Positions 1,120 through 33,688 of a stretch of DNA of 64,000 nucleotides are shown here, piece after piece. A program made the position numbers and the translations under genes. The notes under the pieces were generated by a model. The model made no database searches. It saw only the letters and a list, made by a program, of their open reading frames with translations, and was not told where the DNA came from. Numbering within the stretch: position 1 is the stretch's first letter; each line of letters starts with the position of its first letter. Source of the DNA: a virus; IMG/VR virus record IMGVR_UViG_3300027973_000030, positions 32,001 to 96,000 of that record. One strand, given 5' to 3'.

Positions 1120-1483
1120 GATGTGTGCCGGCTGTAACAAGTCTAAACACATATGGAAGTCTCACGGTAAAGAAAAATACTGTAAGGAATGCTGGTATGA
1201 TATTGAGAAACCAAAGTCTATAGCTCCTATGTCTAAAAAGATGAAGGAAACTGTAGATCAGTATTCAAAGATACGTACTGCATACCTTACAGTAAATACT
1301 TTATGTAAGGCTAAACTATCTGGCTGTACAAGCAATGCTACAGAAGTACATCATAAAGCAGGTAGAGGTGAAAATTATCTACGTATTGCTACATGGTTAC
1401 CTGTCTGCAGGAACTGTCACACATGGATAGAGCTTCATCCAGATGCAGCTAAAGAACTTAATTTATCAGAAAACCGATTATAA
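1100..1483 (+). CDS. HNH-type nuclease with N-terminal Zn finger
   Basis: CxxC...CxxC, then EVHHKAGR...LPVCRNCHTWIE (HNH core). Confidence 0.75.
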   Translation: MIQAKLKMCAGCNKSKHIWKSHGKEKYCKECWYDIEKPKSIAPMSKKMKETVDQYSKIRTAYLTVNTLCKAKLSGCTSNATEVHHKAGRGENYLRIATWLPVCRNCHTWIELHPDAAKELNLSENRL

Positions 1484-1484
1484 T

Positions 1485-1766
1485 ATGGAAACAAATTGGG
1501 AAGAAACTAGAAACAAATACAGAATGGCAGCAGTCCATTTTGCTAACAGATATGGAGTAGAAGTATCTGAACACGTAATTGACGTTATGATATCAGCAAT
1601 GATGACAAGAGATAACGTCTTACAAGGTGGTAGCTTTGTACAATCAGTAGTGGCTAACAATTTAAAAGATGCTATTAGTAATGCAGATGCAGACTGTAGT
1701 AAAAATTTAAGAATCATTACACTGTGTGCAAACTTTTGCTACGCTGAATACGAAATGAATGAGTAA
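1485..1766 (+). CDS. hypothetical protein
   Basis: ORF track 1443-1766; ATG at 1485 directly after the upstream stop is the likelier start (METNWEE...). Confidence 0.65.
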   Translation: METNWEETRNKYRMAAVHFANRYGVEVSEHVIDVMISAMMTRDNVLQGGSFVQSVVANNLKDAISNADADCSKNLRIITLCANFCYAEYEMNE

Positions 1767-18843: not shown

Positions 18844-19416
18844 ATGTCAAACTTTATGTCAGATGATGAACATAAGGAATGGAAAAAAGCTAAGCTTGAC
18901 GCCATCCGTGATTATCATCAAGAATTAATTGATGATCTTAAAATCTTAAGAACAGATTTTAACATGAAGATGCCGTTCTACAATTCTCGTGGTGAGATGG
19001 TAGTAGGTATCTTTGCATCAGAGTTTAAAAAAGAAAAAGGTTTCTTCTTTGAACTAGTAACTAGAGGTTTAGAACCTATCAACACTGAAAGAACAGTATA
19101 CAGAGTTCAACCAAGTGTAACATTTCAAGATGAATATGAACTAAATGAAAAAGGTTCGTATCTTGTGTCACTGGATGAATTAAGAACTGTTAATCCACAG
19201 TCAGTAGCAATTAGTAAATCTTCTGCTGTTACTAGCAGTGATAGATTTAATACTAAGCAACCAACAGCTCCTACACCAGATGTTATGTACAAAGCTCCAG
19301 CACCTATGGAAGACGCTCCTTATAGTGAAATGACTATAAGAGACTATTACGCTATACATACAGGTAAGCCTGTTAGTGTTAAAACATGGTTAAACGAACT
19401 TATAAAACAAAAATAA
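18844..19416 (+). CDS. hypothetical protein
   Basis: 190 aa with C-terminal MTIRDYYA motif. Confidence 0.7.
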   Translation: MSNFMSDDEHKEWKKAKLDAIRDYHQELIDDLKILRTDFNMKMPFYNSRGEMVVGIFASEFKKEKGFFFELVTRGLEPINTERTVYRVQPSVTFQDEYELNEKGSYLVSLDELRTVNPQSVAISKSSAVTSSDRFNTKQPTAPTPDVMYKAPAPMEDAPYSEMTIRDYYAIHTGKPVSVKTWLNELIKQK

Positions 19417-19417
19417 T

Positions 19418-20101
19418 ATGGGACAAGGAATTTTAGTAATTGCAGAATCAGGTAGTGGTAAATCCACTAGTATAGAAAAACTAGATCCAAAAGAAACGTT
19501 TATTATCAACATTGCTAATAAACCATTACCTTTCAGAGGTTGGAGAAAAAACTATACTATTTGGTCTAAGGATAATCCTGCTGGTAACATGTATGATAAA
19601 GCTTCACCTGCAAATATTGAGGCAGCTTTAAAATATATCAGTGAGAAACGTCCAGAGATTAAGAACATTATAATTGATGACTTTCAATACATGAGCTCAT
19701 TTGAGTTCTTTGAAAGAGTAGACGAGAAAGGTTATGAGAAATTCACACAGATCGGTGCACATTTAGCTCGTATAGCTAGACTACCTAAAGATCTTAGAGA
19801 AGACCTTATGATATTCATCTTAACCCATGCAGAAGAATCTACTGATATGGAAGGTAAAAAGAAGTTTAAAGCAAAAACTATTGGTAAAATGGTTGATGAA
19901 AAACTTACTTTAGAAGGATTATTTTCCATAGTTTTGTTTGGTAAAGTAAAAAAAGACAAAGACGGTAACATCAGATATGTATTTGAGACATCTAACAATG
20001 GTGAAAATACATGTAAGTCTCCTAGAGGGATGTTTGAGTCATTTGAGATAGCTAATGATCTGCAACTTGTAAAAGAAGCAATTACAGCTTATGAAAACTA
20101 G
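19418..20101 (+). CDS. AAA_24 / Sak4-like ATPase (single-strand annealing)
   Basis: AESGSGKSTS, IIIDDFQY, KTIGKMVD, LEGLF and KSPRGMF motifs. Confidence 0.85.
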   Translation: MGQGILVIAESGSGKSTSIEKLDPKETFIINIANKPLPFRGWRKNYTIWSKDNPAGNMYDKASPANIEAALKYISEKRPEIKNIIIDDFQYMSSFEFFERVDEKGYEKFTQIGAHLARIARLPKDLREDLMIFILTHAEESTDMEGKKKFKAKTIGKMVDEKLTLEGLFSIVLFGKVKKDKDGNIRYVFETSNNGENTCKSPRGMFESFEIANDLQLVKEAITAYEN

Positions 20102-26046: not shown

Positions 26047-28005
26047 ATGGCACAGACAGCATCACCTACCCATTGGGTAATGGACTATGAGACACTTACT
26101 AATTGTTTTATAGCCGTATTCCAACACTATAAAGATGATAATATCAGTGAGATATTCATTGTTACTAAAGATCAAAACGACATAGCTAAATTTATAGACT
26201 TTCTTAATAAGTGTGTAAAACAAAAGCAGTGGCATATATCATATAATGGTCTAGCATTTGATGCTCAGATTTCACAGCATGTGATTAATAATCAAAAAGA
26301 ATACTTAAAACTAGATGGTGAAGAAGCTGCTAAGCGTTTATATGCTTACGCTCAATCTGTTATTGATAAATCAAGTAAAGGGGAGTTTCTAGAATTTGCT
26401 CCTTACAAACTTAAGATCCGACAAATAGATCTATTCAAAATGAACCACTGGGATAACCGTGCTAAGATGAGTAGTCTTAAATGGATACAGTATAGTATGG
26501 ATTGGGAGAACGTTGAAGAAATGCCGCATCATTATTATGAAGATGTAGAAACATCAGAACAATTACAGGATGTAGTTCAATATTGTATCAATGACGTACT
26601 CAGTACTAAGATGATACTTGAACATTCTAAAGAGCAAATACAGCTCAGACAAACTCTTACAAAAGAATATGGTATTGACTTATATTCAGCATCAGAACCA
26701 AGAATTTCTAAAGAGTTATTTCTTTATTTCTTGAGTAAGAAGCTGGACTGGGACAAGTCTGAGATCAAAATGCTCAGAACGCCACGTAATTATATTGTAT
26801 TAGCTGATTGTATACTTCCTTATGTGAAGTTTGTAACCCCAGAGTTTCAAAAGATTCTTGACTACTTCCGTACCAAGGTAATTACATCTACTAAAGATGG
26901 TTTTAAGTTCACTCTTGAAAATAGAGGTGTTAAAACTGACTACGGTCTAGGCGGTATCCATGGTGCAGCAGATGCAGGAGTATATGAAGCTCAAACTGGT
27001 TATACAATTATGACTAGTGACGTTACATCATTCTATCCTAATCTAGCTATTAAGAACAAGTTTCATCCTGAACACCTACCACAAAAAGAGTTTGGTGATC
27101 TGTATGAATGGTTCTTTGAAGAGCGTAAAAAGATTCCTAAGTCTGATCCTAAAAACTACGTTTACAAGATTATCCTCAATAGTACATACGGTTTAACAGG
27201 TGATGAAAACTCATTCCTGTATGATCCACGTATGACTATGCAAATTACAATCAACGGTCAGTTATTATTATCAATGCTTTACGAGATGTTGTGTTTAGCT
27301 ATACCAGAAGCTATGCCTCTAATGCAAAATACAGATGGTTTAGAAATGATGATACCAACATCAGCTATACCTAAGTATATGGAGGTATGTGAAAAATGGC
27401 AAGTAATTACACAACTTAACCTGGAACATGATGAATATTCTAAAATGATCATTGGTGATGTAAACAATTATATAGCAGTAACTAAAGATGGTAAAACTAA
27501 ATGTAAAGGTAGATTTGAGTGGGAAGACTTAGAAAAAAAGAAAGTAAGTGTATTCCATAAGAATAAATCTTTCTTAATTATACCTAAAGCTATCTATGCA
27601 TTCTTTACAAAAGGTATAGAGCCCGAACAGTTCTTAGAAGACAATCAGTCTATCTTTGATTATTGTGCAGGTGTAAAAGCTAAAGGTGGCTGGTATTATG
27701 AGACTAGAAAACTTATTCATGAAAATGATGGGTCATCTATAGAAAAAACTAAACTACAAAAAATAGTAAGATACTATGTAGCTGAGAAAGGTACTAAACT
27801 AATGAAGTGTCACCCGGATGGTCGTGAAGCTCAAGTAGAAGCAGGACCTTGGATGCAAACAGTAGTTAATGACTTAAGAGATACTAATAAACCTCTTAGT
27901 GAATACGGCATTAACAAAGACTATTATCTAGAAAACATTCATAGACAAATAGAACAAATCAACAAGATAAAGCGTAAAAGCTTTACTCAGTTATCATTAT
28001 TTTAA
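26047..28005 (+). CDS. polB: family B DNA polymerase (crAss type) with 3'-5' exonuclease
   Basis: ExoI DYET, YNGLAFD and YCINDV; polymerase SDVTSFYPN, KIILNSTYG, NTDG and DVNNY. Confidence 0.92.
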   Translation: MAQTASPTHWVMDYETLTNCFIAVFQHYKDDNISEIFIVTKDQNDIAKFIDFLNKCVKQKQWHISYNGLAFDAQISQHVINNQKEYLKLDGEEAAKRLYAYAQSVIDKSSKGEFLEFAPYKLKIRQIDLFKMNHWDNRAKMSSLKWIQYSMDWENVEEMPHHYYEDVETSEQLQDVVQYCINDVLSTKMILEHSKEQIQLRQTLTKEYGIDLYSASEPRISKELFLYFLSKKLDWDKSEIKMLRTPRNYIVLADCILPYVKFVTPEFQKILDYFRTKVITSTKDGFKFTLENRGVKTDYGLGGIHGAADAGVYEAQTGYTIMTSDVTSFYPNLAIKNKFHPEHLPQKEFGDLYEWFFEERKKIPKSDPKNYVYKIILNSTYGLTGDENSFLYDPRMTMQITINGQLLLSMLYEMLCLAIPEAMPLMQNTDGLEMMIPTSAIPKYMEVCEKWQVITQLNLEHDEYSKMIIGDVNNYIAVTKDGKTKCKGRFEWEDLEKKKVSVFHKNKSFLIIPKAIYAFFTKGIEPEQFLEDNQSIFDYCAGVKAKGGWYYETRKLIHENDGSSIEKTKLQKIVRYYVAEKGTKLMKCHPDGREAQVEAGPWMQTVVNDLRDTNKPLSEYGINKDYYLENIHRQIEQINKIKRKSFTQLSLF

Positions 28006-31616: not shown

Positions 31617-31886
31617 ATGAAAAAATATATAACAGCAGCATTAAGCTTAGGTACAATTACTTTATTGTTCTACACTATGTTTGATTTAAAAGAACAAGTA
31701 AAACAAGTGGACATTCTACAAAAACAATTAGATAGTGTTACAATATTAAAAGACAGCTTATATGATGTAAGTTTTGGAGCTCAAGTAGAAAATGGTAGAT
31801 ACCAAATGTCTCTAGAGCATTTAAAGACAGTTAATCCTAAAGCAGCTGATGAATTTGAAAACTTCTACGGTCATGAAACAGAGTAA
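31617..31886 (+). CDS. N-terminal TM coiled-coil protein
   Basis: MKKYITAALSLGTITLLFY...; ATG at 31617 preferred. Confidence 0.65.
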   Translation: MKKYITAALSLGTITLLFYTMFDLKEQVKQVDILQKQLDSVTILKDSLYDVSFGAQVENGRYQMSLEHLKTVNPKAADEFENFYGHETE

Positions 31887-31977
31887 ATGGAAATGGGATG
31901 TAATCTTTGTGTGGTTTATTATAGCTGCTACAAGTTTTACGCTCTGGTATAATATTATAAACTGGATAAAGAATTAA
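31873..31977 (+). CDS. small membrane peptide, not in ORF track
   Basis: MKQSKWKWDVIFVWFIIAATSFTLWYNIINWIKN*. Confidence 0.5.
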   Translation: MKQSKWKWDVIFVWFIIAATSFTLWYNIINWIKN

Positions 31978-31978
31978 C

Positions 31979-32260
31979 ATGAAACTATATACAGAAGAAC
32001 AAGTGTTAAATACTGTAAACGCTATACAAAGTTATATTGAAAAATTTGGTATTGATGGTGCACAACCTACAATCAAAAATCATTTAAAGATGCTTGCACC
32101 AATAGAACTACCAAGTGATGAGGATATAAAATCATATTCTGATAGATATTCAACAATGCATGAAGATGTGTCTGATAAACTAGGTCAATACCTTGTATCC
32201 GCTATTCATATAGATGGTGCTAAATGGATAAAAGAACAAATCATTAACCAAAACAAATAA
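31979..32260 (+). CDS. hypothetical protein ending in repeat-encoded NQNK
   Basis: MKLYTEEQV...PIELPSDEDI...GAKWIKEQIINQNK. Confidence 0.75.
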   Translation: MKLYTEEQVLNTVNAIQSYIEKFGIDGAQPTIKNHLKMLAPIELPSDEDIKSYSDRYSTMHEDVSDKLGQYLVSAIHIDGAKWIKEQIINQNK

Positions 32261-32263
32261 CCT

Positions 32264-32365
32264 ATGAAGAAATTATTATGTAAAATATTTGGTCATAAAT
32301 TAATACCATACCAAAATACAAATCGTATTCATTTTTGTAAAAGATGTGGATACATAAAATTATAA
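32264..32365 (+). CDS. micro-protein, DUF1660-like Zn-binding peptide
   Basis: MKKLLCKIFGHKLIPYQNTNRIHFCKRCGYIKL*; start and stop are both supplied by the repeats. Confidence 0.7.
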   Translation: MKKLLCKIFGHKLIPYQNTNRIHFCKRCGYIKL

Positions 32366-32381
32366 CCAAAACAAATAACCT

Positions 32382-32468
32382 ATGTCAGCAATACCATTAA
32401 TAATATTTTTTATAATAGCAATAATAATTGGCTTAAAAGTTGATGATGAAAAAAGAAAAAAATACTAA
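32382..32468 (+). CDS. micro membrane peptide
   Basis: MSAIPLIIFFIIAIIIGLKVDDEKRKKY*. Confidence 0.6.
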   Translation: MSAIPLIIFFIIAIIIGLKVDDEKRKKY

Positions 32469-32484
32469 CCAAAACAAATAACCT

Positions 32485-32619
32485 ATGAATGAGTTAGTAT
32501 GGTATCCAAAATCAGTAACATTTATTGTTAATGGTAAAAAATATGAAGGATATAAAACACCAATGAATTATTTAATAGCTTGTATTATATGGATTAATTT
32601 ACATAACCAAAACAAATAA
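32485..32619 (+). CDS. micro-protein ending in NQNK
   Basis: MNELVWYPKSVTFIVNGKKYEGYKTPMNYLIACIIWINLHNQNK*. Confidence 0.6.
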   Translation: MNELVWYPKSVTFIVNGKKYEGYKTPMNYLIACIIWINLHNQNK

Positions 32620-32622
32620 ATT

Positions 32623-33033
32623 ATGAAAGTAAGCTTTGATTTTGACGGTACGCTAGAGTTTCAAGATGTTCAAGATTATGCATCTGAACTTATAAAACAA
32701 GGCGTAGAAGTATGGGTAGTCACCACAAGGTGGGATGAAAACCATAAACATAAGTATCCTATGAACGCTACACTAGATGATCTATGGGAAGTAGTAGATA
32801 GATTAGGTATACCTAGACATAGAGTAAGATTTACTTGTATGGAATGGAAAGCCACTTATCTAAAAGGGACCAAGTTTATGTGGCACCTAGATGACAATGC
32901 TAGAGAATTTACAGAATGTAAAAGAACAGAAGGTTGTGCTGTACCTATGATTGATGTAATGGGTAATAACTGGAAAGAAAAATGTGAAAGACTACTACTA
33001 GAAGCTAATAAAATAGAGGAAAATAAAGACTAA
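32623..33033 (+). CDS. HAD-superfamily phosphatase
   Basis: SFDFDGTL, VVTTR, K and HLDDN motifs. Confidence 0.85.
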   Translation: MKVSFDFDGTLEFQDVQDYASELIKQGVEVWVVTTRWDENHKHKYPMNATLDDLWEVVDRLGIPRHRVRFTCMEWKATYLKGTKFMWHLDDNAREFTECKRTEGCAVPMIDVMGNNWKEKCERLLLEANKIEENKD

Positions 33034-33036
33034 TTT

Positions 33037-33483
33037 ATGAAAAAAGCGTTATATTTGGATGATGTAAGGACACCTACAGATACTATTCCAGGTTATGAAC
33101 CTTGGAATGTAGTAAGGAACTACGAAGAGTTTACTAGTTGGATACTAGTTAATGGTATACCAGACTTAATCAGCTTTGACCATGACCTAGCTACAGAGCA
33201 CGTAGAGGACTATTACAGACAGGTAGCTTCTCAGGGGTATCAACACCCAGATTATGATCAATATGAGGAGAAAACAGGTCTAGATTGTGCTAAATGGTTA
33301 GTAGAACTTGTACAAGCTAATCCAGATATGGTAATTAAGTCTTGTTCTATACATAGTCATAATCCTGTAGGAGCTAATAACATCCACGGATTAATTAACG
33401 GATTTAAAAAACACATGGGATGGCCCGAAGATTGTTATATTGGAAAGCACCCTTTTAAAGTGGAAACAACAAAAATAGAATAA
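33037..33483 (+). CDS. cyclic-phosphate-processing receiver-like domain protein
   Basis: LYLDDVR, ISFDHDL, KTGLDCAKWL and HSHNPVG motifs. Confidence 0.8.
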   Translation: MKKALYLDDVRTPTDTIPGYEPWNVVRNYEEFTSWILVNGIPDLISFDHDLATEHVEDYYRQVASQGYQHPDYDQYEEKTGLDCAKWLVELVQANPDMVIKSCSIHSHNPVGANNIHGLINGFKKHMGWPEDCYIGKHPFKVETTKIE

Positions 33484-33657: not shown

Positions 33658-33688
33658 AAAAGGAGAGACTAACAATCTCTCCTTTTTT
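33658..33688. terminator. bidirectional terminator between convergent blocks
   Basis: AAAAGGAGAGA-CTAACAA-TCTCTCCTTTTTT with A and T tracts on either side. Confidence 0.85.

Follow-up and report, generated by a model that had tools for sequence, protein, structure and literature searches.

The window that we analyzed is a stretch of 64,000 nucleotides (nt), positions 32,001 to 96,000 of the IMG/VR virus record IMGVR_UViG_3300027973_000030; the complete 131-kb record that contains it, from a lake phage, is called G000 below. On the + strand of the window, between 31979 and 33033, lies a run of small genes separated by copies of a 22-mer, here called the joint, that ends one small gene and starts the next. 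A pattern scan of the window found the 22-mer with 0 mismatches at 32245-32266 (joint 1), 32363-32384 (joint 2), and 32466-32487 (joint 3), all on the + strand. The fourth copy (joint 4, + strand, 32604-32625) has 2 mismatches, reading ...AAATAAATTATG where the exact joints have ...AAATAACCTATG; the four identical copies reported in an earlier account made from the letters alone (the sequence-only reading) are thus three identical copies and one variant. In 100 dinucleotide-preserving shuffles, which provided the null distribution, the mean number of matches to the 22-mer was 0.00 and the maximum was 0. Calculated from the coordinates, the inserts between the joints are 96, 81, and 116 nt long, and the open reading frames (ORFs) that start at the ATGs encode 33, 28, and 44 amino acids (aa), as previously stated.

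The joint ends reading frames in more than one way. The first TAA of the next joint terminates ORF1 and ORF2; ORF3 and the 93-aa ORF (31979-32260) read through NQNK and terminate at the second TAA of the joint, so that joint 1 contains the last four codons and the stop of the 93-aa gene. These two modes of termination had been recognized before. At joints 1, 3, and 4 there is also an A after the ATG, so CTATGA adds a TGA in the third frame, and with such an A the joint is able to stop all three frames.

The genes in and around the array, all on the + strand, are as follows. At its left border is a resident gene for a small hydrophobic 42-aa protein (31849..31977), a homologue of which (MKQSKWKW...) is present in two other viral-contig stretches, L132 and L133. 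The first gene of the inserted block encodes the 93-aa protein (31979..32260; MKLYTEEQ...PIELPSDE...GAKW.KEQI.NQNK*), a member of what we call family B; relatives are encoded in 161 viral-contig stretches (tblastn, E <= 1e-3). ORF1 (32264..32365) encodes a Cys-rich DUF1660-type mini-protein of 33 aa that matches PF07874 (DUF1660) with an E value of 2.4e-7 and 31.6 bits versus a gathering cut-off of 21.4, over profile positions 2-27 of 63; it also matches phrog_2670 (E 6.3e-7). The 28-aa product of ORF2 (32382..32468), judged from its sequence, is membrane-peptide-like: a hydrophobic segment at the N terminus is followed by a charged tail. It has relatives elsewhere with 93% and 75% protein identity, the latter encoded in L034. 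ORF3 (32485..32619; 44 aa, C terminus NQNK) has nine homologues in other contigs; besides those in L124 and L105 there are seven at 51-93% aa identity, three of them only 51-57% identical, that keep its core, WYP.S.T.IVNGK.Y. At the right border is a resident gene for a 136-aa protein (32623..33033), with a single weak match to phrog_1238 (E 1.9e-4). The 93-aa ORF and ORF2 have no family match in Pfam or PHROG, and none of the array genes matched a family of known function in these databases. The anti-defense or host-takeover role that the sequence-only reading suggested for such cassettes is speculative.

In G000 (131,294 bases, rated 100% complete) the 15-letter core of the joint occurs only at the four places of the array. 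A search for the 22-mer elsewhere, as the sequence-only reading had suggested, thus found nothing in the rest of its own genome and a great deal in other phages; absence of the repeat elsewhere, which that reading had named as evidence against itself, applies within G000 but not to phages at large. The exact 22-mer is present in at least 120 IMG/VR stretches, and the 80 matches listed are on 80 different contigs. The 120 IMG/VR stretches listed have 162 exact copies; when up to 4 mismatches were allowed and the ATG was required, the listed loci gave 252 copies, 1 to 6 per locus. Whole records (34 to 131 kb) carry the core on one strand per record and mostly in clusters: there are 5 copies in a record of 34,251 bases with direct terminal repeats, 5 in one of 69,590 bases with inverted terminal repeats, 2 in one of 73,158 bases, and 1 in one of 127,624 bases. 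Among 185,579 prokaryote species genomes, the 22-mer was found in only 7 stretches, on 5 short contigs of metagenome-assembled genomes; three of these contigs are labeled Bacteroidota (Sediminibacterium, an uncultured Bacteroidetes, and Draconibacterium). When GenBank phages were searched with 40 nt around joint 1, 64 records matched, with no full exact 22-mer among the 40 matches listed, which are partial chance matches; this search was run with the low-complexity filter on, so a copy may have been missed. With a 3-kb query the only GenBank phage match was one of 107 nt, to Flavobacterium phage immuto.

The genes that flank the joint are diverse. For a census of neighbors we used the 211 joints with no more than 2 mismatches in the listed IMG/VR stretches. 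Downstream of these are 83 protein families and upstream 56, and 132 of 177 pairs are distinct. Downstream ORFs range from 4 to 683 aa, with just 7 longer than 154 aa. The upstream ORF stops at the second TAA at 140 joints, at the first TAA at 39, and at the overlapping TGA at 10; no upstream ORF was found at the remaining 22. Proteins ending in NQNK, which the sequence-only reading had said should be looked for, account for 134 of the 140 upstream ORFs that use the second TAA. An A directly follows the ATG at 179 of the 211 joints, versus 47% of G000 ORFs.

Two families provide many of the NQNK tails: family A (MKTAMQELIE...EKEKEQI...YYNQTYNQNK) and family B (MKLYTEEQ...ILNQNK). Family B was examined in 80 of the 161 stretches, its members being found by peptide patterns outside the tail; 78 proteins, 34-85% identical to the 93-aa protein of the window, were evaluated, and 17 of them have the NQNK C terminus. 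In the NQNK tails of these genes, AAC makes up 31 of 34 Asn codons versus 32% genome-wide, although the sequences are related and a binomial test of the excess is therefore no more than indicative. From this codon excess, the NQNK tail appears to be constrained at the nucleotide level.

Each cassette of the array has a close copy elsewhere, and in each case the similarity ends at the joints. The ORF1 cassette with both its joints (32245-32384, 140 nt) is 97.9% identical to L081:6033-6172; the ORF2 cassette (32361-32492, 132 nt) is 96.2% identical to L005:5843-5974; and for the ORF3 cassette (32471-32628) the identity is 96.2% to L124 (158 nt) and 94.2% to L105 (155 nt). When L081, L005, and L124 were aligned in register with the window, identity became random within a few bases beyond the joints, and the flanking genes differ. 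The same was seen more broadly in a set made up of 120 loci and 10 kb of the window: of 869 ends of homology blocks, 148 fell within 8 nt of a joint, although only 0.79% of positions do, a 21.6-fold excess. At other ORF starts the excess of block ends was only 2.5-fold.

The two resident genes show where the block was inserted. Relatives of the 136-aa gene were found at 25 loci (52-91% aa identity). In four of these the start was unreadable, and none of the other 21 has a joint before the gene, the best having 5 mismatches and the rest at least 9. The 136-aa gene of L133 is 90% identical to that of the window and comes immediately after the resident 42-aa ORF. This is an empty site, and because the resident genes abut there, the window carries an insertion from 31980 to 32622. 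In L132 this position is occupied by another gene, of 114 aa, with degenerate joints, and the site is thus alternatively filled. Before the 136-aa gene, L133 reads ...GATAAATATG and L132 reads ...ACAAATAAAATATG. Joint 4 resembles a hybrid: its left part looks like the joint and the remainder like the start region that belongs to the resident 136-aa gene, an appearance that points to a crossover within the joint.

Six of the joint-bearing loci are related to G000; the stretches they share with it, many of them kilobases long, have 66-91% nucleotide identity. Five of the six carry the joint and additional genes at two other sites that lack them in G000, and in L124 it is the ORF3 cassette that is located at one of these. 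Cassette content thus varies among relatives; the invariant content and order that the sequence-only reading had named as evidence against itself was not what we found. The spread of the joint over at least 120 stretches, the variety of its neighbors, the ends of homology at joints, and the empty and alternatively filled sites, all visible when the contigs are compared, support the claim that the joint is portable and that small genes are gained, lost, and shuffled at it in the absence of a tyrosine or serine recombinase.

Two spots in these relatives deserve description. One is at window positions 1483-1505 (G000:33483-33505), where the flanking genes of G000 are one base apart; L019, L039, and L118 have a joint there plus an extra gene of 133 or 122 aa exactly after the upstream stop codon. 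The other (G000:~19155-19200, labeled C1, ~12.8 kb before the window) has a tRNA-like 3' end directly before a gene of a 94-aa family, and L124 and L027 carry the joint plus other cassettes at this site. ARAGORN called no tRNA in G000, despite the tRNA-like 3' end at the site (G000:19151).

The sequence-only reading held that the A-rich core of the joint fits Shine-Dalgarno (SD)-less initiation in Bacteroidota. In Flavobacterium johnsoniae, adenines at -14 to -11, -3, and -6 favor initiation (Baez et al. 2019, PMC6847099). With AAAA at -14 to -11 and without an SD sequence, the joint has the A block of SD-independent initiation in Bacteroidota; the fit does not extend to positions -3 and -6. 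Upstream of G000 genes in general, A peaks at -13 to -10 and G is scarce. This pattern is shared by the joint-bearing loci, which have SD-like 4-mers before 5% of their non-joint genes. The inserts would be translated, and the joint would serve as their start site.

There were no promoter- or terminator-like signals in the array. Sigma-70-like sites were not in excess between 31000 and 33800 (12 versus 14.7 +/- 3.6 in shuffles), and none lay at a joint on the + strand of this region. The -7 promoter element of Bacteroidota, TAnnTTTG, was absent from the + strand between 31677 and 33049. No stem-loop terminator was found within the joints; the only terminator-like hairpin is at window positions 33658-33686, a two-way hairpin between the end of the + strand small-gene block and a converging 1719-aa gene on the - strand. 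Because the array lacks such signals, the cassettes would be read from one transcript.

Profile searches of G000 found no integrase, resolvase, RecA, ERF, or RecT. The tyrosine recombinase profile PF00589 had 0 matches in the complete 131-kb record and was positive in 14 of 14 control genomes; the serine recombinase profile PF00239 also had 0 matches in G000. A Sak4-like single-strand annealing protein is encoded at 19418..20101 on the + strand (phrog_2872, E 1.4e-63; PF13479, 32.1-32.5 bits versus a cut-off of 27); this protein is a candidate catalyst of short-homology exchange and might act at the joint. No inverted repeat recurs at the four joints, and there is no G before the ATG on the upper strand of the joint, which makes attC-like folding impossible. 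The array had been likened to an integron without an integrase, but with neither an integrase nor a recurring inverted repeat the likeness does not extend to mechanism. Given a Sak4-like annealase, no recombinase, and no recurring inverted repeat, short-homology exchange is the most economical mechanism.

Our interpretation, to which we give a probability of about 0.7, is that the 22-mer is a stop plus SD-less-start linker that doubles as a short-homology crossover point and is shared by a pool of small accessory genes in uncultured freshwater phages, whose putative hosts are probably Bacteroidota. In mRNA, the joint would close the frame upstream, by TAA in two frames and by TGA in the third if the next codon starts with A, and it would offer the next gene an unstructured, G-free, A-rich start region for SD-independent initiation. 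The tightly packed genes of one transcript could then be translated one after another. In DNA, since identical letters border a large number of unrelated genes across many phages, the joint would serve as a short patch of homology where co-infecting phages exchange whole genes in register, with the crossovers falling inside the joint. Such exchange would proceed by general homologous recombination or by single-strand annealing, for which the Sak4-like annealase is available, and not by a site-specific recombinase. The array of the window is a block of four such genes (93, 33, 28, and 44 aa; 31980-32622) inserted at the start codon of the resident 136-aa gene.

Several points weigh against this interpretation. 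The joint is used at only 4 gene starts in G000 and so is not needed for expression in general. As a start region it has C at -3 and T (U) at -6, not the A that is favorable in F. johnsoniae, and its predicted accessibility (0.58-0.82) is not higher than that of other gene starts in the phage (0.59 +/- 0.13). A length of 22 bp is short for homologous recombination. A scan for exact matches favors perfect copies, so the apparent invariance of the joint is partly a matter of ascertainment; in the set seeded by protein, a 3' joint with no more than 2 mismatches followed only 13 of 78 family B genes. All of the evidence for recombination comes from the comparison of assembled contigs, in which exchange would have left its traces without any event being observed directly, and no cassette-deleted or circular forms were among the Logan contigs aligned to the array.

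It is also conceivable, although we consider it unlikely, that the joint is conserved purely as a functional RNA site, either a strong start or the binding site of a translation regulator, and moves as the leader or tail of genes. Genes would then be moved by illegitimate recombination, selection would retain the junctions that fall at gene boundaries, and the joint would not be a crossover site. The overlap with the start codon, the A block at -14 to -11, the conserved synonymous sites of the NQNK tail, and the one-sided joints at some insertions (e.g., in L019 and L039 at the site equivalent to G000:33483) agree with such a role. Cluster K mycobacteriophages offer a precedent in their start-associated sequences, conserved repeats tied to start codons whose function is not known (Pope et al. 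2011, PMC3203893). However, all three cassette homologies include both joints and end within a few bases of them, the enrichment of block ends at joints far exceeds that at other ORF starts, and the hybrid appearance of joint 4 suggests a crossover within the joint. The RNA-site reading and the linker-and-crossover reading are not mutually exclusive.

A dedicated enzyme, such as an unrecognized site-specific recombinase or a homing-type nuclease, could have the joint as its target, which would make this a true integron-like or homing system. A letter-exact sequence of 22 bp in many lineages is indeed the size of a nuclease or recombinase site, and many of the neighboring genes have no known function. 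We regard this as very unlikely, since tyrosine and serine recombinases are missing from G000, the four joints have no recurring inverted repeat, the G-free upper strand before the ATG precludes attC-like folding, and no gene family was seen at all joints, among the 83 families downstream; nuclease families were not searched for. To the remaining explanation we give hardly any credence: that the array is a local accident or an artifact, arising from tandem duplication of one gene start or from chimeric assembly at a shared repeat. Tandem duplication was rejected because the three inserts show no relationship to one another, and a closer copy of each is found in another contig. The samples were compared by means of Logan contigs, not raw reads. 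The repeat can confuse assembly, as contigs from two other samples end at joints and lead into other genes (in X3 at 32094-32262 and 32490-32653); these breaks also indicate that joint-bearing phages co-occur. Two runs, however, possibly the source runs, each contain the whole stretch in one contig (77,675 and 5,826 bases), and the 22-nt repeat is shorter than the reads, the shortest cassette (ORF2) with both joints spanning only 125 nt. Furthermore, the same pattern is present in hundreds of independent contigs. In X3 and X4, parts of 32263-32489 are not covered by contigs, which with Logan contigs proves nothing. Only one contig junction was listed, from 32129 to 32216; 38 other letters separate its two sides, and it derives from the family B gene of another phage.

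The joint can be compared with several known systems. Integrons have attC sites, which are imperfect inverted repeats, and an IntI integrase, and they hold cassettes of promoterless small genes. The array likewise consists of single promoterless small genes with a recurring site between them and variable content. Unlike integrons, it has no integrase and no imperfect inverted repeat, and the joint overlaps coding sequence and a start codon. Lambdoid phages have conserved boundary or linker sequences at gene junctions that, in the modular theory, are proposed sites of homologous exchange; they were not found in our literature searches. The joint is similarly a short gene-boundary sequence proposed as an exchange site between unrelated modules. 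The lambdoid linkers were described within one group of related temperate coliphages, whereas the joint, a single exact 22-mer, is common to many uncultured phages whose genomes differ greatly in size, and it acts as both stop and start signal.

The PeSLs (promoter-early stem-loops) of T4-type phages are conserved regulatory sequences between small genes, and recombination between copies inserts, deletes, or replaces genes; mini-circles have been shown (Arbiol et al. 2010, PMC2839356; Comeau et al. 2014, PMC4122927). The joint is also a short conserved regulatory sequence between small nonessential genes in variable regions that has no dedicated recombinase, and its copies too mark the points of insertion, deletion, and replacement between related phages. 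In contrast, PeSLs consist of a sigma-70-like promoter and a terminator stem-loop and act on transcription; the joint is 22 nt long, has no stem-loop or promoter match, overlaps stop and start codons, and is partly coding (NQNK). The start-associated sequences (SAS) of Cluster K mycobacteriophages are 13-bp sequences built around AGGAG that lie 3-7 bp upstream of start codons (Pope et al. 2011, PMC3203893). Like the SAS, the joint is an asymmetric repeat near the ATG of nonstructural genes of different families, is found in one orientation, is absent from the host genome, and has a proposed role in translation initiation. The SAS include the SD core AGGAG and are restricted to a single cluster of phages; the joint, being free of G up to its ATG, lacks the SAS consensus, has no SD sequence, includes stop and start codons, is present in records of 34 to 131 kb, and marks homology breakpoints. 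The joint thus works like PeSLs and sits like SAS but is without the defining features of PeSLs, SAS, or integrons. No description of such a joint was found in the literature searched, which left out subscription journals and supplements.

It has long been asked how phages come by their many tiny genes of unknown function and exchange them, and the published recombination linkers either act on transcription, as PeSLs do, or stay within single phage groups. If our interpretation is correct, in-register exchange of genes can rest on a translation signal and can work in hosts that ignore SD sequences. The joint would then also be a sequence tag for mobile small phage genes in metagenomes. It is a compact natural start region that is testable in Bacteroidota genetics.

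A second form of joint was found through family B. Some family B genes (first in L183, L194, L196, and others) have the C terminus YGGGEQ, and a 22-mer containing GGAGG, six bases before the ATG, then precedes the next gene. This 22-mer is exact in at least 120 viral-contig stretches (L237-L356). In the stretches listed there are 156 GGAGG joints, at 133 of which the upstream gene ends in YGGGEQ with a TGA overlapping ATGA. Downstream of these joints the genes vary widely, and some belong to families also present in the first pool. Among the listed loci, the two joints never occur in one locus (0 of 120 each way). Of the other genes in loci with the GGAGG joint, 12% have an SD-like 4-mer before them, versus 5% in loci with the G-free joint, which at most hints that the GGAGG form may belong to SD-using hosts. 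We tentatively suggest, as an extension that we hold to be possible but rather doubtful, that the joint is a standard connector for a whole community of phages. Its letters would stay identical because small genes that carry it can be plugged into unrelated phages of the same hosts. Distinct dialects, the G-free form with its NQNK stop and the GGAGG form with its YGGGEQ stop, would define the exchange partners, and integrase-free cassette exchange would partition the pool of accessory genes.

Loci with the GGAGG joint also have a conserved N-terminal leader, MTNNKQQTA, before different protein bodies, including that of family B (MTNNKQQTAMKLYTEEQ...). Because the leader is found on different bodies, the joint may extend into the downstream coding sequence, or there may be alternative starts.

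Other features of the window have less bearing on the joint. A 652-aa DNA polymerase is encoded at 26047-28005 and is at most ~35% identical to the polymerases of cultured phages, which places this phage far from any deposited genome. We tried to deduce the host from polymerase similarity, but the closest cultured phages infect many different hosts, so this was uninformative. Two genes downstream of the array (33037-33483) is the gene for a 148-aa protein with a cREC_REC domain (PF20274, E 2.3e-19). In L361 (~250-420) and L363 (~1460-1640) there is a possible third form of the joint, a TAA followed by ACTATG, before genes that start with MAQQTA... and are family A-like; in both stretches it adjoins distant homologues of ORF3.

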